Shown: piece by piece, positions 30,661 through 54,901 of the stretch | Numbering within the stretch: the first letter of the stretch is position 1 | Layout: each line of letters begins with the position of its first letter | Sequence record: MH051917 | Source: Enterobacteria phage vB_EcoM_IME341 | Direction: 5' to 3' (one strand) | Length of the DNA stretch: 64,000 bases | Program-made: the position numbers and the translations under genes | Notes under the pieces: model-generated | What the model was told of the DNA's origin: nothing | The model's database searches: none | Seen by the model: only the letters and a program-made list of their open reading frames with translations

Positions 30661-32079
30661 ATGGCTTATACCGTAGCTATTGCTCCTTTGGCGGCTACGG
30701 CCGTTATTGGAGCAACAACCAATTTCACTGCAACCGGCTCTGGCGCTGCAGCTGAAGGTGTTGAATCATTTGTATGGACTGTTGATGGCGTTCCACAATC
30801 TTCTGTGACTGCAGCAATGGCTTATGTCGCTGTTGGTCCGGCAGGCAGTAAGACTATTAAAGTTGTTGCAACCACCACTCCGGCAGACGGTGAACCGGAA
30901 ACTGCTGAGGCTGAGACAACTTTAACTGTCCAGAATAAACCAATGCCTGCTATTACATTGACTTTGGACCCTACTTCGGTTTCTAAAGAAGTTGGCCAAT
31001 CTCAAGTTGTTACTGCTAACGTGACGGGCGCGCCTGCCGGTGCAACAATTGCTTATGTTTGGAAACGTAACACTAGTGTAATCTCTGGACAAACTGGTAA
31101 AACTATTACCGTAACCGAAGCGGCAGCAGCAAATTACACTTTAAACTGTGAAGTCACCGTTACTGCACCTGATTATACTTCAGCTACCGCTACTAAAGGT
31201 GCTGCGGTAACTTTTGTTAAGAAAACTATATCAGGTGTTTCTGTTACTTTAACGCCCGCCTCAATTAGTACAGAGAAAGACTCACCTGCACAGTTTAAAG
31301 CGGATGTAGTCGGCGCCCCTTCCGGTGTAAATGCAACTTATTCTTGGAAGAAAAACGGTTCTATTATTCCAGGCGAAAGCAGTAATATTCTTGCTGTTGA
31401 TACGTCTACAATAGGTTCTTACTCTATTGAAGTTTCGGTAGTCCTAACAGGTACGGATTATAATGATTTAACTGTTACCAAAACAGGAAGTGTAACAATT
31501 ACTAAAAAGACTATGGCGGGTGTTTCCGTTAATTTAACGCCTGCTTCTATTACTGTCTCTGAAGGAACCCCAGCTTCTTTTAAAGCCACAGTAGCCGGTG
31601 CGCCTAGTGGTGCTACTTTTGCCTATTCTTGGAAGAAAGACGGTTCACCTGTTGTGGGTACTACAGATACATTAGTAATTGACACAAGCGCCGAAGGTTC
31701 ACAGGTTATTGAAGTTTCTGCTGTTGTTTCGGCGACCGATTATAATCCAGTGACAGTCAAAAAAACAGGTAATGTAACAATTACGGCTAAAGTAGCTCCT
31801 GAACCAGAGGGCGAACTACCTTACGTTCATCCGCTACCAGTTCGTAATTCAGCTTATATTTGGTGTGGTTGGTGGGTTATGGATGAAATCCAGAAAATGA
31901 CTCTTGAAGGCAAAGACTGGAAAACTGACGAACCTGATAGTGAATATTATCTCCATCGTTATACCCTTCAAAAAATGGTAGCCGATTATCCTGAGGTTGA
32001 TTTACAGGAATCTCGTAATGGTAGAATTATTCACAGAACCGCTTTGGATGCTGGAATTATTTACGATTACGTTTATTAA
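30661..32079 (+). CDS. hoc: Hoc, outer capsid decoration protein with tandem Ig-like domains
   Basis: 472 aa; T4 Hoc-like N-terminus and highly similar C-terminal capsid-binding region (AKVAPEPEGELPYVHPLP.R.SAYIWCGWWVMDEIQKMT.EGKDWKTD); about four Ig-like repeats versus three remembered for T4 (376 aa). Confidence 0.92.
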   Translation: MAYTVAIAPLAATAVIGATTNFTATGSGAAAEGVESFVWTVDGVPQSSVTAAMAYVAVGPAGSKTIKVVATTTPADGEPETAEAETTLTVQNKPMPAITLTLDPTSVSKEVGQSQVVTANVTGAPAGATIAYVWKRNTSVISGQTGKTITVTEAAAANYTLNCEVTVTAPDYTSATATKGAAVTFVKKTISGVSVTLTPASISTEKDSPAQFKADVVGAPSGVNATYSWKKNGSIIPGESSNILAVDTSTIGSYSIEVSVVLTGTDYNDLTVTKTGSVTITKKTMAGVSVNLTPASITVSEGTPASFKATVAGAPSGATFAYSWKKDGSPVVGTTDTLVIDTSAEGSQVIEVSAVVSATDYNPVTVKKTGNVTITAKVAPEPEGELPYVHPLPVRNSAYIWCGWWVMDEIQKMTLEGKDWKTDEPDSEYYLHRYTLQKMVADYPEVDLQESRNGRIIHRTALDAGIIYDYVY

Positions 32080-32108: not shown

Positions 32109-32161
32109 ATGATATTTTAGGAGATTAAGTTATTGACGAATAATTTTTAATAGGTGAATAT

Positions 32162-32341
32162 ATGAAATTTAACAAATATATATGGGTGTTGATTTTCTTT
32201 ATAGTGCTATTTTTGTTTTCGTTAATTTCATTAACTAGTGTGATGTTTGCTTCTATATTGGCTCTTTTCACCTGCATTAGTTCCTTTTTTGGGATAATAG
32301 CTACTATAGATAAAATTTTACGTACCAAAAAGGGCCCTTAG
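32162..32341 (+). CDS. Small membrane protein (59 aa, two predicted transmembrane segments), not in the ORF track
   Basis: AGGTGA Shine-Dalgarno before ATG; MKFNKYIWVLIFFIVLFLFSLISLTSVMFASILALFTCISSFFGIIATIDKILRTKKGP; flanked by GC hairpins on both sides. Confidence 0.45.
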   Translation: MKFNKYIWVLIFFIVLFLFSLISLTSVMFASILALFTCISSFFGIIATIDKILRTKKGP

Positions 32342-32346
32342 GCCCT
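32332..32346. other. GC hairpin after the small membrane-peptide ORF
   Basis: GGGCCC-TTA-GGCCC with an A-run on the 5' side; its orientation suggests termination of antisense transcription or a stability element. Confidence 0.4.
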
Positions 32347-32441
32347 TCCCTAAAAGCTTGCTTTATAATTCACGCCCATAACTTTGAGAAGAACCCAGCA
32401 TAGTGAGCCTAAGGTGCTACTTGTCCTACCATGAATCTCCT

Positions 32442-33196: not shown

Positions 33197-34204
33197 ATGT
33201 TCAAGAAATATAGCAGTCTCGAAAACCATTACAACAGTAAGTTTATCGAAAAACTCCGTACTAATGGTTTGACTGGTGGTGAATGGGTAGCACGTGAGAA
33301 GATTCATGGGACCAACTTTAGTTTAATCATAGAACGTGACGCAGTCACATGCGCCAAGCGCACTGGCCCTATCCTCCCTGCTGAAGATTTCTATGGCTAT
33401 GAAATTGTACTCAAGAACTATGCTGATTCTATTAAATCTGTTCAACATCTAATTGAATCGATTAATTACCAGTCGTACCAGATTTATGGTGAATTCGCTG
33501 GGCCAGGTATCCAGAAGAATGTGGACTACGGTGATAAAGACTTTTATGTGTTCGATATCCGAGTTACTAAGGAAGATGGTTCAGAATCTGTTCTAACCGA
33601 TACATTGATGGAAGCCTTCTGTATTATCCATAAGTTTAAGGTAGCTCCATGTCTGGCTACAGGTAGCTTTGAAGACCTTATTAAATTACCTAATGACTTT
33701 GATTCAGTTATTCCTGATTATAATTTTGCGGTGGATAACGCTGGCCTAACTATTGCAAACTCGACAGACTTTATTCCTAAGGTAGAAGGTAAAGTATTCA
33801 CGGCTGAAGGCTTTGTACTTAAACCTGATATTCCTACCTGGCTTCCAAACGGAAATCGTGTAGCGATTAAATGTAAGAACTCTAAATTCAGCGAGAAGAA
33901 AAAGTCTGATAAGCCTATTAAGGCTGCGGTAGTTTTATCCCAAGATGATATGGATTTGCTGTGGCAATTCACTGATTATGTGACAGTTAACCGTATCAAT
34001 AACGTTATTAGTAAGATTGGCGAAGTATCACCTAAAGATTTTGGAAAGGTAATGGGCTTGACGGTCCAAGATATCCTTGAAGAAGCTGCCCGTGAAGAAT
34101 TGGAATTAACTGACGCTGAAAATCCTGTTGAAGTTAAAAAGCAGCTCATTGAGTGCGTAAAAGAAACATTAAGACATGTTTGGATTGAACTAGTATCCAA
34201 ATAA
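33197..34204 (+). CDS. rnlB: RNA ligase 2 (RnlB)
   Basis: From the internal Met [20 protein letters not shown]...: near-identical to T4 Rnl2 ([15 protein letters not shown] lysine-adenylation motif, [23 protein letters not shown]). Confidence 0.95.
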
Positions 34205-34212
34205 ATGATAAA

Positions 34213-34235
34213 GGGACCGTAAGGTCCCTTTTTTT
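34213..34235. terminator. Bidirectional terminator between convergent rnlB and the gene 24 paralogue
   Basis: GGGACC-GTAA-GGTCCC hairpin flanked by an A-run and TTTTTTT. Confidence 0.8.
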
Positions 34236-35517
34236 AGTTTTTATCCAATGGAGGAAGTTTAACACCAAGATAAGAACTCAATTGACTTTGATTAGCCATT
34301 TTGTCCATATCCGCACCGTCAATAATACGAGCTTCTTTGTCGTCTTTAGCGACGGTATAAGGATTCGCAGTCAATGCATACCGAGCCAATAAAGATATGG
34401 TAGGTTGCAATGAATCTGGGTCTACAATAACCTTGAATTCACCTACTGAAGTATCACCTTCATCATCAACTTCTTCGAGCCCTTCCGTATAAGGCGCATA
34501 ATACAAAGATGCGACCGTCTGCCCTTCACCCATCTGAGCATTTACACCGACAATAACATAATCACACGGACTATTCATATCAGCATAAAGTGGTAGACCG
34601 TTCTTTAATATGCCATAAGCTAATTCGTCTTGGTCTTCTTTTTTCTCAACCCAACCGGATGCAGCTAAAATAGCGGCGCAACGAGAAGAAGCTACTGCAT
34701 AAGTACCTGCAAACGAAGTCTGGCGTTGAACAGCAGAATTCATTTCACACATATAGTAATACAAGGTACGCGCTCGGTCTTGGGCGTTATCATATTGTGG
34801 GTCTGTTAAGTTCAAGACGCCTTTCTCGGAAACTCCTTGGACTTTAAAACGAGAACTTACCGTAATTAAGGACTGTAATACGTCTTTATTAATTTCTTCG
34901 GCCATTTGAATAGCCAAAATATTGTCTATAAAGTCTGGTGCATTAAACCCGTTGGATTCTAAATCCTGGGCCAGTTCTACAGTCAAAGAAGTTTTAAGTT
35001 TACGCGATTTAACTTCAGTCTGCCACTTATCAATACGGAATCCTGCTTCAGCAATCTCAGGATGGCCTTTTTCAAATTTATTGGTAAAGGCTGCATCAGA
35101 CATCATACGAATATGGCCTGCTGCAATAGCTTCTGAAATAACTTCACCCAAATCGGTTTCAGTTGTTCCTGCAAACGGAGAAGCTTCTAATACCTTGAAA
35201 ACCACACTTTCGAATTGGAACATATCACCAACAGCATATGCTTCGTCTTTATCGGTGAATTCAGGAATGTTTTTACGTTCGAACATACCAATTTCGCCTG
35301 CAAAAGTGGCTCCGCCGAGATAAGTCATTTTATCGTCTGGGTTTAAAACACGGACACCATATAATGCTGCAACAGGTTGAGTAGTTTTTTGTTCAGCAAC
35401 AAGGGCTTTAAAAATTCTTTTATTAGTTGCCTGGGTATATGAAAGAAGATTAGGACGGGCGACCTGGTTGGCCGCCGTCAAAGTTGATTCTTGTATTAAT
35501 GCATTAATCTTTTTCAT
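34234..35517 (-). CDS. Capsid vertex protein paralogue (gp24-like, second copy)
   Basis: 427 aa; roughly 50% identical by eye to the adjacent gp24 (e.g. ...RPNL...AT.K.I....AEQ.T.QP.AALYGV..L.PD...); starts one codon after the gp24 stop (TAAATG). Confidence 0.85.
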   Translation of the reverse strand: MKKINALIQESTLTAANQVARPNLLSYTQATNKRIFKALVAEQKTTQPVAALYGVRVLNPDDKMTYLGGATFAGEIGMFERKNIPEFTDKDEAYAVGDMFQFESVVFKVLEASPFAGTTETDLGEVISEAIAAGHIRMMSDAAFTNKFEKGHPEIAEAGFRIDKWQTEVKSRKLKTSLTVELAQDLESNGFNAPDFIDNILAIQMAEEINKDVLQSLITVSSRFKVQGVSEKGVLNLTDPQYDNAQDRARTLYYYMCEMNSAVQRQTSFAGTYAVASSRCAAILAASGWVEKKEDQDELAYGILKNGLPLYADMNSPCDYVIVGVNAQMGEGQTVASLYYAPYTEGLEEVDDEGDTSVGEFKVIVDPDSLQPTISLLARYALTANPYTVAKDDKEARIIDGADMDKMANQSQLSSYLGVKLPPLDKN

Positions 35518-36798
35518 TTATGCCTCGTAAATAATTGGAGGAAGTTTAACACCAAGCAGATAAGACATATTACTCTGCCCTGCCATTAAATCCATATTAG
35601 TTGCGTCTATAACACGAGCTTCTTTATCATCTTTAGCAACGGTATACGGGTTTGCTGAAAGTGCATAACGAACCATCAGAGAAATAGCCGGTTGCAAACT
35701 ATCAGGGTCTACAATAACTTTATAGGCACCAACATGTTCTTGGTCGTCTAAATCCAGACCTTCGGTATACGGAGCATAGAAAATAGAACCAACTACTTCA
35801 TTACCGCCGTAATCTTCTTTAACGCCTACGATAACATAATCTAAAGGACTATTAACATCACAGAATACAGGCAATCCATTAATCAAATAACCGTAAGCAG
35901 TTTCTGGGAGCCAAGCTTCATCTTCTGGTTTATGTTTCAACCAACCTGAACCTGCAAGCATTGCGGCTACACGACTAGATGCGACAACAAACGTACCTGA
36001 ATAAGAAGTGGTTTTCTGAATTTCAGAATTCATCTCACAAACCATTTCATATAATTTACGTGCACTTTCTGGAGCGGAATTATAGGACAAATCAATAATA
36101 CCGTTATCAGATACACCAGTTACTTTGTAACGTTTAGATACGGTAATCAAGGATTGTAATACGTCTTTATTGATTTCATCAGCCATTACAGTGGCTAAAA
36201 GGTCTTCTAAGAACGCAGGGGCGTCGAAGCCATTAGATTCCATGTCTTGGGCTAGTTCTACAGTCAAAGCGGTTTTAAGCTTACGGGACTTAACAGGGGC
36301 GTTCCATTTATTAACCTGGAATACTGCATTGCTAATTTCAACATCACCTGCTTCGAATTTTTCTGTGTGGGCCGCATCAGGAACAAGACGACAAGTTAAT
36401 GACACCAAACCTTCTTGAAGGGCATCAGCCAATTCTGTAGCGCTAGTGGATGCGAGTGGGCTTGCTTGAAGAGCCTTATAAACCACATTCTGATACTTGA
36501 AATATTCACCCTCGGCAATCGCCTGGGCCTTATCTGTGAGTTCCGGGATAGTTTCACGGTCTTTAGAACCAACTTCACCGCCATAAACGGCACCAGTTTG
36601 GAAGCTGAATTCATTATCAGGGGTAAGATATTTGACACCATACAATGCAGCAATAGGCTGGCTAGTACGTTGTTCAGCAATAATATCACGGTAAATCAAT
36701 TTGGTTGTAGCACGGGTCAAAGCAACAAGATTAGGGCGACCCAATGAGTTGCTAGAAGTAGTTGTTGACTCGCGCAGTAATTCGTTAATCTTTGCCAT
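35518..36798 (-). CDS. 24: Capsid vertex protein gp24
   Basis: 426 aa; near-identical to T4 gp24 (MAKINELLRESTTT.SNS.GRPNLVALTRATTKLIY.DI.A.QRT.QP...); late promoter TATAAATA about 29 nt upstream. Confidence 0.95.
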   Translation of the reverse strand: MAKINELLRESTTTSSNSLGRPNLVALTRATTKLIYRDIIAEQRTSQPIAALYGVKYLTPDNEFSFQTGAVYGGEVGSKDRETIPELTDKAQAIAEGEYFKYQNVVYKALQASPLASTSATELADALQEGLVSLTCRLVPDAAHTEKFEAGDVEISNAVFQVNKWNAPVKSRKLKTALTVELAQDMESNGFDAPAFLEDLLATVMADEINKDVLQSLITVSKRYKVTGVSDNGIIDLSYNSAPESARKLYEMVCEMNSEIQKTTSYSGTFVVASSRVAAMLAGSGWLKHKPEDEAWLPETAYGYLINGLPVFCDVNSPLDYVIVGVKEDYGGNEVVGSIFYAPYTEGLDLDDQEHVGAYKVIVDPDSLQPAISLMVRYALSANPYTVAKDDKEARVIDATNMDLMAGQSNMSYLLGVKLPPIIYEA

Positions 36799-37169: not shown

Positions 37170-37841
37170 ATGAATTATTTAATTTACAAAATAACCAATC
37201 TCATTAATAACAAGATTTATGTTGGAGCCCATGCCACTACAGATGTTAATGATTCTTATATGGGCTCCGGGGTTAACATAGTAAAATCCATAAAGAAATA
37301 CGGCTTAGAGAATTTTAAAAAGGAAATCCTTTTCAATTTCGAAACATCTGAAGAGATGTATGCTAAGGAAGCCGAACTAGTTGACGAGGCTTTTGTTATG
37401 AGAACAGATACTTATAATGCAGCTTTAGGTGGTAAGGGTAATCCTGTTATAGTAGCTTTACAGGAACCTGGGTATCGTGAGATGTTATCCGAAAAGACCA
37501 AGGCAGGTATGACCAAGGAAGTAAGGGCCAAAATGTCTAAATCGAAAACAGGTTCTAAAGAATCCAAAGAGCACCGAGAAAACAAATCTATAGCTAATAA
37601 AAAGTTTTATGAGAATAGGGATTCTCATCTTAAAGGTAGGAAACTATCGGAAGAACATAAAGCCAAAATTAGAGAGAACTCTAATAAAGGTAAGAAATTT
37701 GTATTTGTTGATATAATGATTAAAGGATATAGATTTGACAGATACGAAACCGCCGCCGAATTTTTTAATGTTACCGGAGCTACCATTCGTAATTGGATTA
37801 AAGAAACAAGGCCTCAATTTGACGATTGCTATAAGTTATAG
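37170..37841 (+). CDS. Seg-like GIY-YIG homing endonuclease (segD position between genes 24 and 23)
   Basis: 223 aa; canonical GIY-YIG N-terminus (YLIYKITNLINNKIYVGAH...YMGSG), NUMOD3-like repeats (SEKTKAGMTKEVRAKMSKSKTGSKESKEH), C-terminal HTH-like end (FFNVTGATIRNWIKE). Confidence 0.85.
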   Translation: MNYLIYKITNLINNKIYVGAHATTDVNDSYMGSGVNIVKSIKKYGLENFKKEILFNFETSEEMYAKEAELVDEAFVMRTDTYNAALGGKGNPVIVALQEPGYREMLSEKTKAGMTKEVRAKMSKSKTGSKESKEHRENKSIANKKFYENRDSHLKGRKLSEEHKAKIRENSNKGKKFVFVDIMIKGYRFDRYETAAEFFNVTGATIRNWIKETRPQFDDCYKL

Positions 37842-49970: not shown

Positions 49971-50903
49971 TTATCCAATTAAAATAGGTGTTGGTGGGTC
50001 GAGTAAATCTAATTCTTCACGAAGACGTTCTTTTTCTAAACGAGCCTCTTCAATCAATCGAATACCGTCTACGGTGGTTCCGCCTGCAAGTTGCATGCCT
50101 TGGTGTTTGGCCAAAATATTACCATTGACTTCTTTAACCAGTGCCGTAGCATAATCTTTAACCCAACGGTTATTATATGCACCATCTTGAAGACCAAGGT
50201 CCTCACCTACACGCATACCAGAAATACGACGTGACGGGTTATCCCAAACAGCACCCGGGCTCCATGCATCTTCACCACAAGCTGAAGCATAACCATATCC
50301 TACAGTATTTCCTACCATAGAATCCACTCCATTAAAAGAGCGAGTATAAACTTCAATTACAATAAAATCGCCTTTAACAAAGTTACCCATTACCTTCAAC
50401 TGTTCAGTGGCATCGTTATACCAATAATCAGGTAGTGGAACCAAAAGGTCCTGCATCATAGAACGATATTGCATTAATTGTGTAAAATAACCAAGGTCAG
50501 CACCAAAGGCATTAGGTCCGAAGCTATTACATGAAGACCCTAACCCACCATTAATTCCGGCTAGGCCTAATACAAAATCAGTAAACCACGGATAAGTTGC
50601 TTGCCCGTCCATAGATGTTAAAGAACCCACGTTGGTTCTCAAAATTTGTGTTACTGCAAATATATTACGTCCTTTAAGGTCAAACACTCCATTACGGAAT
50701 TTTTCTTCATCATCATGACCGATATAAAAAGCCTGATAACCTTTGTTATACCCATTATAATGATACTCGCCGTAGAGCTCTAGGGCGCGCTGGATGCAAT
50801 CGTATACTTGGTCTGTAGTTACTTCAATATTTGTAATCGGCGCACCCAGGCGGCGCAGAATAGCGTCCTTGAGTTGCTTAGGGTTAAATGATTCACTTGC
50901 CAT
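49971..50903 (-). CDS. 13: Neck protein gp13
   Basis: 310 aa (T4 309 aa); synteny; late promoter and terminator hairpin upstream. Confidence 0.85.
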
Positions 50904-50924
50904 ATTTTATTCCTCTAATAACCG

Positions 50925-50932
50925 TATTTATA
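50925..50932 (-). promoter_or_regulatory. Late promoter for gene 13
   Basis: TATAAATA on the minus strand, about 22 nt upstream of the gp13 ATG, just downstream of the wac terminator. Confidence 0.6.
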
Positions 50933-50933
50933 G

Positions 50934-50960
50934 CAAAAAAAGGGCCGAAGCCCTTTTATT
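50934..50960. terminator. Bidirectional terminator after wac
   Basis: AAAAAAA-GGGCCGAAGCCC-TTTTATT. Confidence 0.75.
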
Positions 50961-53358
50961 ATGGTGCTGAGTTTAAAGTCACAAAATCTGACAATAGAAC
51001 CCATGCATTATCAACCAGAACATACGGAAGTCCATCAGCTGCAGGAGCAACAGGAGGGCGTTTAGCCAACTCAGTTTCTAGTGCAGTGATTTTACCTTCA
51101 GCCGCAGTTAAACGGGTTCCTAAATCAGCAACTTTATCAGATTCAACTTTAACCGCCGCTAAACCTGTTTCAAGAGTACCAACTTTACCTTCTACCGTAC
51201 CTAAACGGGTATTGATTCCTGCAACTTTATCGGATTCAACTTTAACTGCTGCCAACCCGGTTTCAAGAGTACTAACTTCACCTTCAACAACGCCTAAACG
51301 GGTATTGATTCCAGCCACTTTACCAGATTCAACTTCAACAACACCTAAACGGGTATCGATCCCTGCAACTTTATCGGATTCAACTTTAACATCGTCCAAA
51401 CCGGTTTCTAAGGTGGTAATTTTACCTTCAGCTGTACCTAAACGGGTATTAATTCCTGCAACTTTATCAGATTCAACTTTAACAGCAGCTAAACCTGTTT
51501 CTAAGGTGACAATTTTACCTTCAGCAGTAGTGACTCTGGTGGTTAAAGGAGCTATTTTAGCGGTGTCCAATTTAATATCGGTAATTTCACCTTCATTAGC
51601 AGCTACTCGTCCGGTTAAAGTAACGATATCGCCTTTGTTCTTAGTTATATCAGCTTTAATAGGAGTTAATTGTGATTCTATAGAACTCACATCTAAGGCC
51701 AAAGCAGTAACATCAGAATCAGTGGTATCGGTTTTAGATTCAAGTGCCGTTATTTTTCCGTTAACGGTAACATCACTTTCTTCTAAAGCTGTGATACGAC
51801 TATCTTGCTCGGTGTCTTTAGATTTTAACAAAACGATATCGGCTTTAATTTCTCCTACTGAAGTGTTTAAAGCTCCGGTACGTGTATCAAGAGAAGAAAT
51901 TGAAGTGTCATTGGAATCGACTCTTGCCGTTAAAGCTGATACTTTACCGTCTGTAACCAATAAAGAAGCTTTGACTGCATCAATTTCTGCGGTGCCGTCA
52001 AGGATTTCCTCCCATGCAGCATCTTTACGTCCGTACAATTTACCGTCAGCAGGAGCTTCACCCAATTTAGTAGGCATTTGGGCTTCAAGGCCTTTAACAG
52101 AGTTTATTAACCCTCGTTCTTCTACAGTACTACCGTTAGGGTTGGTTCCTTCAATCTGGTTGGTAATTTTAAGAATAGAACCCTTAATACCGGTTTGGTT
52201 ATTACCAATCTCTGCCTGCAGGTCCTGAATAGTAGAGGCTGAAGTATTACCTTGAGTTGTAAGGTCATTCAAACGTTTATTAATTGTTCCTGCAGCCGGA
52301 CTTACATCGGCACCAATTTTACGGTCAATATCAGAAACCTGGAAACGAAGCCCTTCAGACGAACTATCACCAACTATATTTTTTAGCTCATTAACATCAG
52401 TACGTAAGCCACCTAATCTACCGTTAATAGAAGTAGGGGTATCCGCAGTACCGATAGTGGTCTCTACCGCAGTAACTCTAGGAACCAAACCATTATTAAC
52501 TGTGTTTTCCAAAGTGGAAGTTTTAGTTTCTAGTGTGGTTACTCTTGTATCAATAGAGCCTTTATCAAAACCTATACTGGTCTTGATGGAATCTATTGAT
52601 TCATTAAAGCTTTCAGCAGCAGTTTCAAGAGCAGAAATCCTGGTATACGCTGGTTGTTTACCTACGGTATCAATATGAGGACCTAGTTCTTCGCGAATTT
52701 CGTTAAGCTTAAGACCAAGTTGCCCTACATCAGAATCTTCGTAATTCTTTTCAAGGGTATCTATACGTTGTGAATGGTCGACAATAGCACTGGTATTATC
52801 CATAATGCGACGTTTCATGCCGGTGGCTTCAGAAGTTTCACCTGGAGGAAGCGGCTGGCTGTTTATGTCCTGGTTTGCATAGTGGCCAATTTCAGATTTG
52901 AGAAGATTTATATTTTCTCTGACGGTGAGATATGGGCCATCTAAAGACGGGTCATAATAACCTACATCTTCTTCTAAAAAATTAAAATTAACGGTTAAGT
53001 CACCTAATTCTTGTTTAGTTTCGGAAGCCTTTTCATCCACAGCCAGTATATCGACACGGTTCTTTTCAATTTGCTGAATAACCGCCGTATCAGTAGAAAT
53101 ATCTAGGGCTTCATTAATCAAATTAACGTTATCCACAAGCTCGTTAATTTTGTCTTTAGAAGCTATACTGTTTTCTTCTAATCTAACTACGTTGGTTTGT
53201 ACTCCTAAAGCAGGGGCGTTCAAATTACCGTCGTGACCGTATTTAGTCGTGGCTCCTTCAATACATTCTCCATTGCGTATCCAACGGATACGCTCTTGGG
53301 ATGCATCAGGTACACCATCGACAAACGGAAGTTCTTTAATACTCAGTTTGTCAATCAT
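50959..53358 (-). CDS. wac: Fibritin (whisker / neck fibre, Wac), extended form
   Basis: From the internal Met MIDKLSIKELPFVDGVPDASQERIRWIRNGECIEGATTKYG... (T4 Wac: MTDIVLNDLPFVDGPPAEGQSRISWIKNGEEILGADTQYG); about 799 aa versus 487 in T4; heptad coiled-coil segments; C-terminal foldon-like ...DGLPYVLVDNAWVLLSDFV. Confidence 0.9.
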   Translation of the reverse strand: MIDKLSIKELPFVDGVPDASQERIRWIRNGECIEGATTKYGHDGNLNAPALGVQTNVVRLEENSIASKDKINELVDNVNLINEALDISTDTAVIQQIEKNRVDILAVDEKASETKQELGDLTVNFNFLEEDVGYYDPSLDGPYLTVRENINLLKSEIGHYANQDINSQPLPPGETSEATGMKRRIMDNTSAIVDHSQRIDTLEKNYEDSDVGQLGLKLNEIREELGPHIDTVGKQPAYTRISALETAAESFNESIDSIKTSIGFDKGSIDTRVTTLETKTSTLENTVNNGLVPRVTAVETTIGTADTPTSINGRLGGLRTDVNELKNIVGDSSSEGLRFQVSDIDRKIGADVSPAAGTINKRLNDLTTQGNTSASTIQDLQAEIGNNQTGIKGSILKITNQIEGTNPNGSTVEERGLINSVKGLEAQMPTKLGEAPADGKLYGRKDAAWEEILDGTAEIDAVKASLLVTDGKVSALTARVDSNDTSISSLDTRTGALNTSVGEIKADIVLLKSKDTEQDSRITALEESDVTVNGKITALESKTDTTDSDVTALALDVSSIESQLTPIKADITKNKGDIVTLTGRVAANEGEITDIKLDTAKIAPLTTRVTTAEGKIVTLETGLAAVKVESDKVAGINTRLGTAEGKITTLETGLDDVKVESDKVAGIDTRLGVVEVESGKVAGINTRLGVVEGEVSTLETGLAAVKVESDKVAGINTRLGTVEGKVGTLETGLAAVKVESDKVADLGTRLTAAEGKITALETELAKRPPVAPAADGLPYVLVDNAWVLLSDFVTLNSAP
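51057..51560. repeat. Tandem in-frame DNA repeats (about 75-150 bp units) inside the wac 3' region
   Basis: Repeated units such as ...CAACTTTATC(A/G)GATTCAACTTTAAC...CCTAAACGGGTATTGATTCC... visible on the plus strand; encode repeated (K)VESDKVAGINTRLG..EGK..TLETGLAAV peptide units. Confidence 0.85.
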
Positions 53359-53368
53359 TTTTATTTCC

Positions 53369-54901
53369 TTAAGCAACTTTAATAATGAATAGGATGGACA
53401 TAGTCCAAGGACGGTTTTCGTTACCAATTAACCCTTCACTGTTTAGGGTAGTTCTTGAATCTCGTGAACCTGAACCATCAATTTCGTATCCTTCGTTTGT
53501 AAAGTAAGAACGGTTATCCCAGTCCAGTCCTTTACGAGTACCGGCAAAGTTAGAACGAACGGTATTACCAAATGCACCCGCATTGTCGTGTTCACCAAAG
53601 CCGCCAGCGTGTTTATGGAAACGAAGTTGCTGGGCTTGTACAGTACCATGGCCATATGAACCACAGCCTACGCCTAATCTTGGTTTACCTTTGGCATCAT
53701 TACCTTTGGCATCTCTAATTCTAACGTTGGCATCCCATTCTCTTAATCCGCCGTCATTAGTCTGGTTTGCTCCACGCGGATATAATCCTCGGAAGTCGGG
53801 ACGAGCACCAGTTGAACCCCATTTACTACCAACTACATTTCGGAATCCTTGTTCACCAGAGTTACCACCATCACAAACAGCCCAACCTGCAGGGATATTA
53901 TTAATCTGGCCTCCCCACATAACAATAGTACCGATAGGGACAGAATCTTTTAATTGGTCGATAGTAACAACATCACGCCCATTGCGACGCAAATTACCAT
54001 TAACGTTTAAAGTACCGTTAATGGTGCCGCCTGTGGTAGAAATAACGTTAGCATTATATGCCAATGCCGTATTCCCATCACCGGAACCAACCGTAGTCGA
54101 TAATTTAACAACACCCAACCTTCCAGTAGTACCAGTACGAGAAAGAAGAGTTGAAGGAGATAAAGCTATATTAGAATCGCTCCCAGCCGAAGCTTCTTGT
54201 GGAGTAGCCAATCTAATAATACCTGCTCGCCCTTGGGTAGAAGTTAAAGATTTTAACCCGGAAGGAGAAATTGCCACACCATTGGTCAATGTACCATTTG
54301 CCACTTCGGCATTTGTTGCGATTCTAACAATACCTTCAACAGTTTGGGTAGCGCTGGCATAAGTCGGTAATGCGGATGTAGCGGCACCAATTGCCTGGGC
54401 GGTTTTCAGAGGTGTCATTGCCGTCGTATCATCTGTACCTGCTAGAGCAGCCGGCAGGGTTGAAATCTTGAGTACGCCTGTAGTGTTCTCTGTGGCTAAA
54501 CGATTGGTGAATGTATAATCTATAGTAGCTTTCAAAGACGATGCTACGATTGCAGCCTGGGTTTCTGTTCCAGCAATGGCTTCATCATTAGTGGCATAAC
54601 GGGTGATGCCTACATAAGTTTCTGTTGCTTGAGTAGGAATATCTAAACGACCTTTTAAAGTGGCCGGAGTTACCGCAGAGAAAGTATCAGTACCATCAAT
54701 AACTTCTTGTTGGGTCGCTAATCTAATAATACCCTGTTCTGTTTCAGAAGCCGAAGGTATATTACCTGTAACACCTATAGCGGAAATAGACGCCAATGCG
54801 TCCTGGACATTAGTAATAGAGGGGTCAAAATTCGACCCGGTAGGGTCGAATGTTTTAAATTCTGATTTATCACTTATGTGTTTTAGTGTATTTGTAGACA
54901 T
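53369..54901 (-). CDS. 12: Short tail fibre protein gp12
   Basis: 510 aa (T4 527 aa); repetitive Ser/Thr/Gly-rich fibre protein; position between wac and 11. Confidence 0.85.
   Translation of the reverse strand: MSTNTLKHISDKSEFKTFDPTGSNFDPSITNVQDALASISAIGVTGNIPSASETEQGIIRLATQQEVIDGTDTFSAVTPATLKGRLDIPTQATETYVGITRYATNDEAIAGTETQAAIVASSLKATIDYTFTNRLATENTTGVLKISTLPAALAGTDDTTAMTPLKTAQAIGAATSALPTYASATQTVEGIVRIATNAEVANGTLTNGVAISPSGLKSLTSTQGRAGIIRLATPQEASAGSDSNIALSPSTLLSRTGTTGRLGVVKLSTTVGSGDGNTALAYNANVISTTGGTINGTLNVNGNLRRNGRDVVTIDQLKDSVPIGTIVMWGGQINNIPAGWAVCDGGNSGEQGFRNVVGSKWGSTGARPDFRGLYPRGANQTNDGGLREWDANVRIRDAKGNDAKGKPRLGVGCGSYGHGTVQAQQLRFHKHAGGFGEHDNAGAFGNTVRSNFAGTRKGLDWDNRSYFTNEGYEIDGSGSRDSRTTLNSEGLIGNENRPWTMSILFIIKVA

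Follow-up and report, generated by a model that had tools for sequence, protein, structure and literature searches.

The wac gene of Enterobacteria phage vB_EcoM_IME341 very probably encodes a JS98-type fibritin of Dhakavirus (JS98/IME08-like T4-type coliphages), a trimeric coiled-coil fiber in which two foldons are separated by a spacer of variable length. The gene was analyzed within a window of 64,000 nt from sequence record MH051917. Fibritins of the JS98 type were previously described as having two T4-like foldon motifs with a coiled-coil spacer of variable length between them, and as trimerizing by the foldon motifs alone (Letarov & Krisch 2013, PMC3797505). The protein is the same in kind as the fibritins of JS98, JS98-C3, JS10, IME08 and IME341 (Latypov 2007; PMC3797505). 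There is good support for regarding it as an unremarkable example of a known fibritin variant, with its design already published and the exact protein already deposited. A literature search found no work treating fibritin under the genus name Dhakavirus. The 31-aa unit structure and the microhomology indel detailed here both fall within the published description of a spacer that “may vary in length”.

Gene context and the region shared with T4 fibritin

The gene and its parts are as follows, with the evidence for each in brackets:

50959–53358, minus strand: wac (fibritin, neck whisker) coding sequence, 799 aa plus stop (ORF, RBS, T4 fibritin match, exact database protein)
53209–53358, minus strand: N-terminal neck-attachment domain, aa 1–50 (T4 fragment matches, invariant residues)
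52063–53208, minus strand: segmented coiled-coil shaft collinear with T4, aa 51–432 (phmmer to 2bsg and 3j2o; AF2)
52207–52284, minus strand: counterpart of T4 helix α11, aa 359–384 (alignment offset −2 from T4; AF2)
52000–52062, minus strand: foldon 1 (internal), aa 433–453, GEAPADGKLYGRKDAAWEEIL (Pfam Fibritin_C, hhalign)
51574–51999, minus strand: non-repetitive part of the spacer, aa 454–595 (coiled-coil periodicity, AF2 helices, Pfam DUF7310)
51058–51573, minus strand: tandem array of 31-aa/93-nt units, aa 596–767 (TRF, unit map)
50962–51057, minus strand: Pro-rich linker PPVAPAA (aa 768–774), foldon 2 (terminal, aa 775–794; DGLPYVLVDNAWVLLSDFV at aa 775–793) and tail (hhalign, AF2)

The wac ORF begins with an ATG with AAGGA just upstream, and is flanked by a gp12-like ORF (53369–54901) and a gp13-like ORF (49971–50903). 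The same order, 12-wac-13, is annotated in IME08, C6 and JS98. According to the window's ORF list, there is no ORF between the wac stop and gp13, which starts 55 nt downstream; a dedicated chaperone gene 3′ of wac is absent, as in JS98-type fibritin and unlike the Aeh1 type. Across 24 kb, the window and IME08 share 97.8% identity, and their Wac proteins are 98–100% identical part by part. NCBI already contains an identical 799-aa protein, YP_010094788.1, under the name of vB_EcoM_IME341 fibritin. Scanning the window for tRNA genes gave none, and the long-tail-fiber genes are located outside the window.

Residues 6–429 align to residues 5–431 of T4 fibritin (2bsg) with E = 4e-74 (phmmer), and the Pfam family Fibritin_C (PF07921) matches aa 373–452 over profile positions 4–90 of 93 (E = 2.8e-22; 79 bits, cut-off 21 bits). 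Together with the 12-wac-13 gene order and the foldon homology, these matches establish the gene as a fibritin, as an earlier note made from the sequence had proposed. Since the Fibritin_C match reaches aa 452, the collinear part terminates in foldon 1. The same note had placed about 455 collinear residues before the extension, ending in a foldon; the foldon is indeed there, at aa 433–453, and the phmmer alignment spans aa 6–429.

At the N-terminus, aa 6–84 match the T4 fibritin fragments 1ox3 and 2ibl (E ≈ 2e-14, phmmer). In a 45-sequence fibritin alignment, the invariant residues of this region fall in aa 11–47 and include P11, P17, Q21 and W26. The shaft is predicted to consist of loop-interrupted helices by AF2, which was run on the full-length monomer (pTM 0.21) and served for secondary structure only. 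The neck-binding N-terminus, the segmented shaft, the residues conserved in the putative docking helix and the foldon motif are common to this protein and T4 fibritin (gpwac, 487 aa; PDB 2bsg, 3j2o, 1aa0, 1avy). However, T4 fibritin has one foldon, which is terminal, and no distal rod, and carries ≈25 more coiled-coil residues ahead of that foldon. In the present Wac, the foldon at the T4 position is internal, and a coiled coil of ≈310 aa leads from it to a second foldon. The difference in length from T4 fibritin, originally estimated at about 310 aa, was measured as 312 aa.

Two foldons and the spacer between them

An internal and a terminal foldon with a coiled-coil extension between them had been suggested from the sequence, and this arrangement was recovered by profile comparison and by the AF2 helices. 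Compared with T4-type terminal foldons, foldon 1 gave an hhalign probability of 98.4%, and foldon 2 gave 97.8% in the profile–profile comparison with T4-type foldons. Foldon 1 alone matches Fibritin_C profile positions 48–90 with 22 bits, just above the Pfam cut-off, while foldon 2 alone has no Pfam match. In the AF2 monomer, foldon 1 shows weak strands only (pLDDT 41–61), and foldon 2 forms a β-hairpin (779–782/785–788) followed by a short helix. Foldon 1 is without the hydrophobic VLLSTFL tail of the T4 foldon and carries a Glu at the position of T4 foldon Leu22, and because of this substitution it may not adopt the canonical foldon fold. Foldon 2, for its part, is without counterparts of T4 foldon Glu5 and Arg15.

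The second foldon had been called the better conserved of the two. This is so within the genus, where the mean pairwise identity is 97% for foldon 2 and 69% for foldon 1, but not relative to T4, since a hand count gave 10 and 11 identities of 27 for the two foldons. We considered whether one foldon had recently arisen from the other by duplication within the gene and rejected this: foldon 1 and foldon 2 match each other with an hhalign probability of only 46.7%, and each is nearer to the T4 foldon than to its partner.

The spacer as a whole shows a periodicity of 3.45–3.55 residues (z = 2–6), and AF2 predicts helices at 464–540, 545–595 and 599–764, the last one continuous. Its first part, aa 454–595, has the same periodicity with z up to 4.9, matches the Pfam coiled-coil family DUF7310 and is 79–98% identical in amino acid sequence across the genus. 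The second part is the tandem array, for which TRF reported a period of 93 nt at 51126–51529. The unit map runs in the order U0 (diverged), U1, the half unit U2a, U2b, U3 and the diverged terminal U4, ≈5.5 copies of 31 aa in all; it agrees with the tandem repeats first noticed at about 51057–51560. The central copies are 77–89% identical in DNA. The extension had been attributed to repeat expansion, and unit number is indeed polymorphic among isolates, but repeat expansion accounts for only ≈110–170 of the ≈340 extra residues, while ≈140 aa (454–595) are a non-repetitive coiled coil.

Pfam gave no domain match in the spacer besides coiled coil. Matches to HutF_N, FlaC_arch, NPV_P10, tropomyosin and others were set aside as low-complexity or coiled-coil noise. 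PDB matches to the P22-like tail needle gp26 (4lin) and to reovirus sigma1 were taken to reflect a generic likeness of trimeric coiled coils and not common origin. The tblastn matches of the spacer to tail proteins of Klebsiella siphophages (≈28% identity, E ≈ 1e-4) were likewise judged to be coiled-coil similarity only.

Length variation among relatives

Both foldons are present in all 14 Dhakavirus Wac sequences, the window counted. These range from 514 to 827 aa, so that the present protein, at 799 aa, lies near the long end of the JS98-type range. The distance between the foldons varies from 40 to 353 aa in the 14 genomes. The two-foldon layout also occurs outside Dhakavirus, for example in CIP9 and CHI14, and is not special to this phage. 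The earlier note had stated that an architecture common to most T4-like fibritins would refute its reading; the layout is shared throughout the genus but not by T4-like phages overall, in which most fibritins have 455–490 aa. In the EcS1, CHI14 and RB43-type fibritins, an internal foldon-like motif is also followed by more polypeptide, but this takes the form of 5–6 contiguous foldon-like motifs or of a β-rich/Ig-like domain after the foldon; the long coiled-coil rod with 31-aa repeats is absent from them.

Within Dhakavirus, Wac length varies mainly by the number of 31-aa units, whole or half, or by the absence of an 855-nt in-frame segment. The suspected polymorphism in repeat number was found when it was looked for across genomes, with 0 to ≈4.5 extra units among related isolates. 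The 855-nt segment is missing from the short alleles (514–515 aa) of C6, AnYang, fDHCT2 and JS98-C3:

51091–51958, minus strand: outer limits of the 855-nt in-frame segment missing from short alleles (blastn, protein junction)

The two blastn blocks at this indel overlap by 13 nt at a microhomology containing GGTAAA, and the protein junction in the short alleles reads KASLL|V(A/E)EGKITALETEL. C6 and AnYang share ≈96% DNA identity with the window over 24 kb, yet have a 514-aa Wac without nearly all of the spacer. The shaft exists in the genus as two alleles with a mutual identity of only 68–70%, and the spacer and foldon 2 reassort independently of these alleles. The length of the rod between the foldons probably differs among isolates by two routes: recombination, unequal or illegitimate, between 93-nt units, and the 855-nt in-frame indel at the microhomology.

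We considered the possibility that the extension was an assembly artefact, in which a mis-assembled tandem repeat had inflated wac. Repeats of 93 nt are of a type that short-read assemblers can mis-size. However, the independent genomes IME08 and JS10 contain the same 2400-nt gene and 799-aa layout with the same unit order, half unit included, and the protein deposited for IME341 is identical. Furthermore, the copies differ enough for unambiguous placement, and most of the extension is non-repetitive. Misassembly, which the earlier note had named as one of the observations that would overturn its reading, is therefore hardly credible. Also very improbable is a reading along the lines of that note, in which the length of wac stems from a recent expansion of repeats, specific to this lineage, behind a foldon newly internalized in this phage. 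Copy number does differ among close relatives (0 extra units in dhaeg, 1 in dhabil, ≈2.7 in CLB_P2 and 3.5 in the window) that are 98% identical in the shaft, as such an expansion would predict. Nevertheless, the layout is common to the whole genus and to other genera, the 3.5-unit array is matched unit for unit in JS10 despite a shaft identity of only 68%, the array copies have diverged by 11–23% in DNA, and the two foldons are barely alike.

Alternatively, the distal rod and foldon 2 could be a separate functional module that contacts the proximal tail-fiber rod, the sheath or the baseplate, or acts as a weak cell-surface adhesin, with length polymorphism tuning adsorption. The near invariance of foldon 2 and its linker (97%), compared to the divergence of the shaft alleles, suggests a constrained partner interface, and the independent shuffling of spacer and foldon 2 is consistent with modularity, as is the presence of globular or Ig-like C-terminal domains past an internal foldon in other fibritins, including that of RB43. 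However, deposited relatives whose foldons are only ≈40 aa apart indicate that the rod itself is dispensable, and the spacer resembles no domain except coiled coil. We regard this reading as unlikely. A JS98-type fibritin with a variable spacer thus remains the preferred description.

Proposed structure and function

As a JS98-type fibritin, Wac would form a trimeric, segmented α-helical coiled-coil fiber. Its N-terminal ≈50 aa would dock on the gp13 neck, giving rise to the collar and whiskers, and the shaft (aa 51–432) would bear the conserved helix by which the long-tail-fiber kneecap is held while the fiber is retracted. The shaft would be followed by the T4-derived foldon at aa 433–453, presumably an internal registration point, and then by a second coiled-coil rod of ≈310 aa, for which we infer a length of ≈45 nm if it is fully helical (≈300 residues × ≈0.15 nm). 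The chain would be closed by the Pro-rich linker and the nearly invariant terminal foldon (aa 775–794), which most likely nucleates trimerization from the C-terminus.

In T4, the long tail fiber reportedly docks with its gp35 kneecap on fibritin residues 361–386 (whisker helix α11), a contact described in a preprint from a map at ≈7 Å in which side chains are unresolved (bioRxiv 10.64898/2026.03.06.709160). AF2 predicts a helix at aa 359–385 of the present protein, and Q378 and Q381 (T4 Q380 and Q383) do not vary among 45 fibritins, while T4 N377 and N381 are replaced by S375 and D379. Residues 359–384 are thus a putative kneecap-docking helix, transferred from T4 by alignment only. This counterpart lies upstream of foldon 1, placing the variable extension distal to the docking site, which argues against the spacer length repositioning that site. 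The suggestion that the extension affects the sensing that governs tail-fiber deployment is weakened accordingly, both by the position of this conserved helix and by the ≈96% identical relatives that are without most of the extension. The distal rod appears instead to be an accessory, dispensable extension and not a tail-fiber docking element.

One further reading is that recombination at the 93-nt array and the microhomology indel switches the length of the distal rod, whose invariant terminal foldon touches a second partner such as the proximal tail-fiber rod, the sheath, the baseplate or the cell surface; this is quite doubtful. If this were true, long and short natural alleles would set different thresholds for tail-fiber deployment or adsorption. 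The significance of the gene beyond annotation is small. Foldons are in wide use as engineering tags, and natural internal foldons with a coiled coil behind them may interest protein designers. For the phages themselves, the effect of whisker length could be tested on the published genomes, which already provide a series of natural alleles whose foldons lie 40 to 353 aa apart in backgrounds that are otherwise 93–98% identical.

The wac locus and its comparison with IME08

The wac gene is flanked by a gp12-like ORF (53369..54901) and a gp13-like ORF (49971..50903), and the order 12-wac-13 is that of T4. The features of the locus are as follows:

50959..53358 (−), wac ORF; ATG preceded by AAGGA; 799 aa
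aa 433–453 (−), foldon 1, GEAPADGKLYGRKDAAWEEIL, at the place expected for the T4 foldon
aa 596–767, nt 51058–51573 (−), repeat array of 31-aa (93-nt) units, consensus KVESDKVAGINTRLGTAEGKITTLETGLAAV
aa 775–793 (−), foldon 2, DGLPYVLVDNAWVLLSDFV, preceded by a PPVAPAA linker and ending the protein

Residues 5–431 of T4 fibritin aligned with aa 6–429 of the window protein (phmmer against PDB sequences, E = 4e-74), and Pfam Fibritin_C matched aa 373–452, covering nearly the whole profile. The annotation of the protein as fibritin is correct, and the exact 799-aa sequence is on deposit (YP_010094788.1, “fibritin neck whisker”, phage vB_EcoM_IME341). Over 24 kb, the window and IME08 share 97.8% identity (98.4% in wac alone); the window belongs to Dhakavirus.

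The IME341 record uses the ATG at 53358, with its AAGGA ribosome-binding site, which gives 799 aa. In the IME08 record (stretch L001, 1432–3900), Wac starts at an upstream TTG, equivalent to window 53427 rather than 53358 (−), giving 822 aa and a 59-nt overlap with gene 12. Mechanical extension of the window ORF to the TTG at 53427 likewise overlaps gene 12; translation is unlikely to begin there, and the start in the IME08 record was probably mis-called. A 446-aa ORF (50888..52228, +) runs antisense to the part of wac that encodes the coiled coil and repeats. It translates into a low-complexity sequence rich in S, T, P, V and A, and is most likely not a gene but a side effect of the repetitive codon composition.

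Other loci were also compared with IME08. Between gp24b and rnlB, IME08 has an insert of ≈1.4 kb (stretch L014, 195–1622) encoding a collagen-like “tail fiber-like protein” with GxQGxxGPxG repeats; by blastn, it has no counterpart in the window, where gp24b adjoins rnlB at ≈34204–34234. Two paralogues of the head vertex protein gp24 (427 and 426 aa; 34234..35517 and 35518..36798, −) are arranged in tandem, head to tail, like 24a/24b of IME08. A 472-aa Hoc-like ORF (30661..32079, +) includes repeated Ig-like modules of ≈95 aa, and this region (with 32114–32434) is only 81–89% identical in DNA to the hoc region of IME08. The IME08 stretch holding a second annotated “hoc” ORF (L014 3031–3975, a gap between blastn blocks that includes short intergenic sequence) had no match in the window. 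A 223-aa ORF (37170..37841, +) with a GIY-YIG-like N-terminus, YKITNLINNKIYVGAH, separates the gp23 and gp24 regions and is read from the other strand; IME08 is annotated with a SegD homing endonuclease at the equivalent position.

Two foldons and a repetitive spacer

Relative to foldon 1, T4 fibritin has ≈25 additional coiled-coil residues ahead of its foldon. Foldon 1 alone scored barely over the Pfam cut-off; its profile matched T4-type terminal foldons with an hhalign probability of 98.4%. A Pfam search with foldon 2 alone gave no match; with hhalign it matched T4-type foldons at 97.8%, and AF2 placed a hairpin (779–782/785–788) and then a short helix there. The two foldons matched each other only weakly (46.7%). 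Of the T4 motif, foldon 1 retains the N-terminal half (EAPxDG..Y.RKD..W) and foldon 2 the C-terminal half (Y V..D..WVLLS.F); residues matching T4 Glu5 and Arg15 have both been lost from foldon 2. This pattern fits an old duplication after which the copies diverged in complementary ways. It would also fit an origin of the T4 type from a two-foldon ancestor that lost the sequence between the motifs, and this second route is the one suggested by Letarov & Krisch (PMC3797505). Foldon 2 hardly varies within the genus (mean pairwise identity 97%, vs. 69% for foldon 1), which suggests that trimerisation is mainly nucleated there, that it offers a surface for binding a partner, or both.

Hydrophobic residues in aa 454–767 recur with a period of 3.45–3.55 residues, well over shuffled controls, and AF2 modelled the spacer as three long helices (464–540, 545–595 and 599–764). 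Its initial ≈140 aa are free of repeats. Besides three full units and an 18-aa half unit, the array has diverged units at its first and last positions. On inspection, core positions in each unit are spaced 3-4-3-4-3-4-3-3-4, i.e., three heptads and one decad, which explains the period of 31/9 = 3.44. The central copies are 77–89% identical in DNA and are thus not fresh duplications.

Length variation in Dhakavirus

Wac proteins of 13 further Dhakavirus genomes were compared with that of the window, making 14 sequences. Both foldons were present in all 14, with foldon 1 always at aa 434–455.

Wac length, phages and extra 31-aa units (lengths for AnYang and fDHCT2 were obtained separately from the others)
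514–515 aa: C6, AnYang, fDHCT2, JS98-C3; spacer almost absent
689 aa: dhaeg; 0
720 aa: dhabil, MX01, ABTNLS3; 1
737 aa: vB_EcoM_005; ≈1.5
751 aa: JS98; 2
768 aa: VR5; 2.5
772 aa: CLB_P2; ≈2.7
799 aa: window, IME08, JS10; 3.5
827 aa: Esco_phi_B-01; more units than the window, and the longest spacer seen (353 aa)

In the longer alleles, a 177-aa spacer head and the last unit are constant, and 0 to about 4.5 intervening units vary. An in-frame stretch of 855 nt is missing from the short alleles, with the junction in a 13-nt overlap containing GGTAAA (protein junction KASLL/VAEGKITALETEL). The shaft upstream of foldon 1 falls into two allele classes, 98–99% or 68–70% identical to the window, while the spacer and foldon 2 are 79–100% identical whichever shaft is present. 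JS10 and the window share the same unit order, half unit included, on different shaft alleles; the array is therefore old and is exchanged as a module. Misassembly of the array is very unlikely, since independent assemblies have the exact wac layout of the window and the copies have diverged enough to be placed uniquely.

The earlier note was accurate in describing a long, repeat-bearing fibritin with two foldons, as seen in the 799-aa ORF, both foldons and the 31-aa array. This architecture is the usual one for the genus and has been described before: Letarov & Krisch (2013; PMC3797505) listed a “JS98-type” fibritin, in which a coiled-coil spacer lies between two T4-like foldon motifs, noted with reference to Latypov et al. 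(2007) on JS98-C3 that spacer length differs among JS98-like fibritins, and stated that the small foldon motifs alone suffice for trimer folding of the T4 and JS98 proteins.

Other fibritins and tail-fibre docking

Among 63 cluster representatives, the commonest class was the T4-type single-foldon protein of 455–490 aa, and the T4-like cluster alone had 447 member sequences. CIP9-like and other phages have fibritins with two foldons 60–90 aa apart, and those of EcS1 and CHI14 have arrays of 5–6 foldon-like motifs. Tandem [DE]AP.DG..Y.R....W motifs adjoin without intervening coiled coil in the EcS1 Wac (P0038, aa ≈430–607) and in the CHI14-like proteins P0039/P0041. In some T4-like fibritins (P0059/P0043/P0063), an internal foldon is followed by a β-rich domain of ≈150 aa.

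According to the literature, gp13 binds the N-termini of fibritin trimers to form the collar and whiskers, and fibritin holds the retracted long tail fibres. For T4, a 2026 preprint (bioRxiv 10.64898/2026.03.06.709160) reports, from a map at ≈7 Å, that helix α11 of the whisker (fibritin residues 361–386; N377, Q380, N381 and Q383) touches the kneecap protein gp35. By phmmer alignment, the counterpart in the window is aa 359–384, where AF2 predicted a helix (359–385); Q378 and Q381 are invariant among 45 aligned fibritin sequences. The docking site would thus lie upstream of foldon 1 and its distance from the neck would not change, with the variable rod projecting beyond it. Coiled coils extend by about 0.15 nm per residue. 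If fully helical (about 300 residues), the rod would have an estimated length of ≈45 nm. Relatives whose DNA is about 96% identical across 24 kb carry the 514-aa allele; the rod therefore looks dispensable, and the earlier note's proposal that its length retunes fibre sensing is unsupported, though not refuted.
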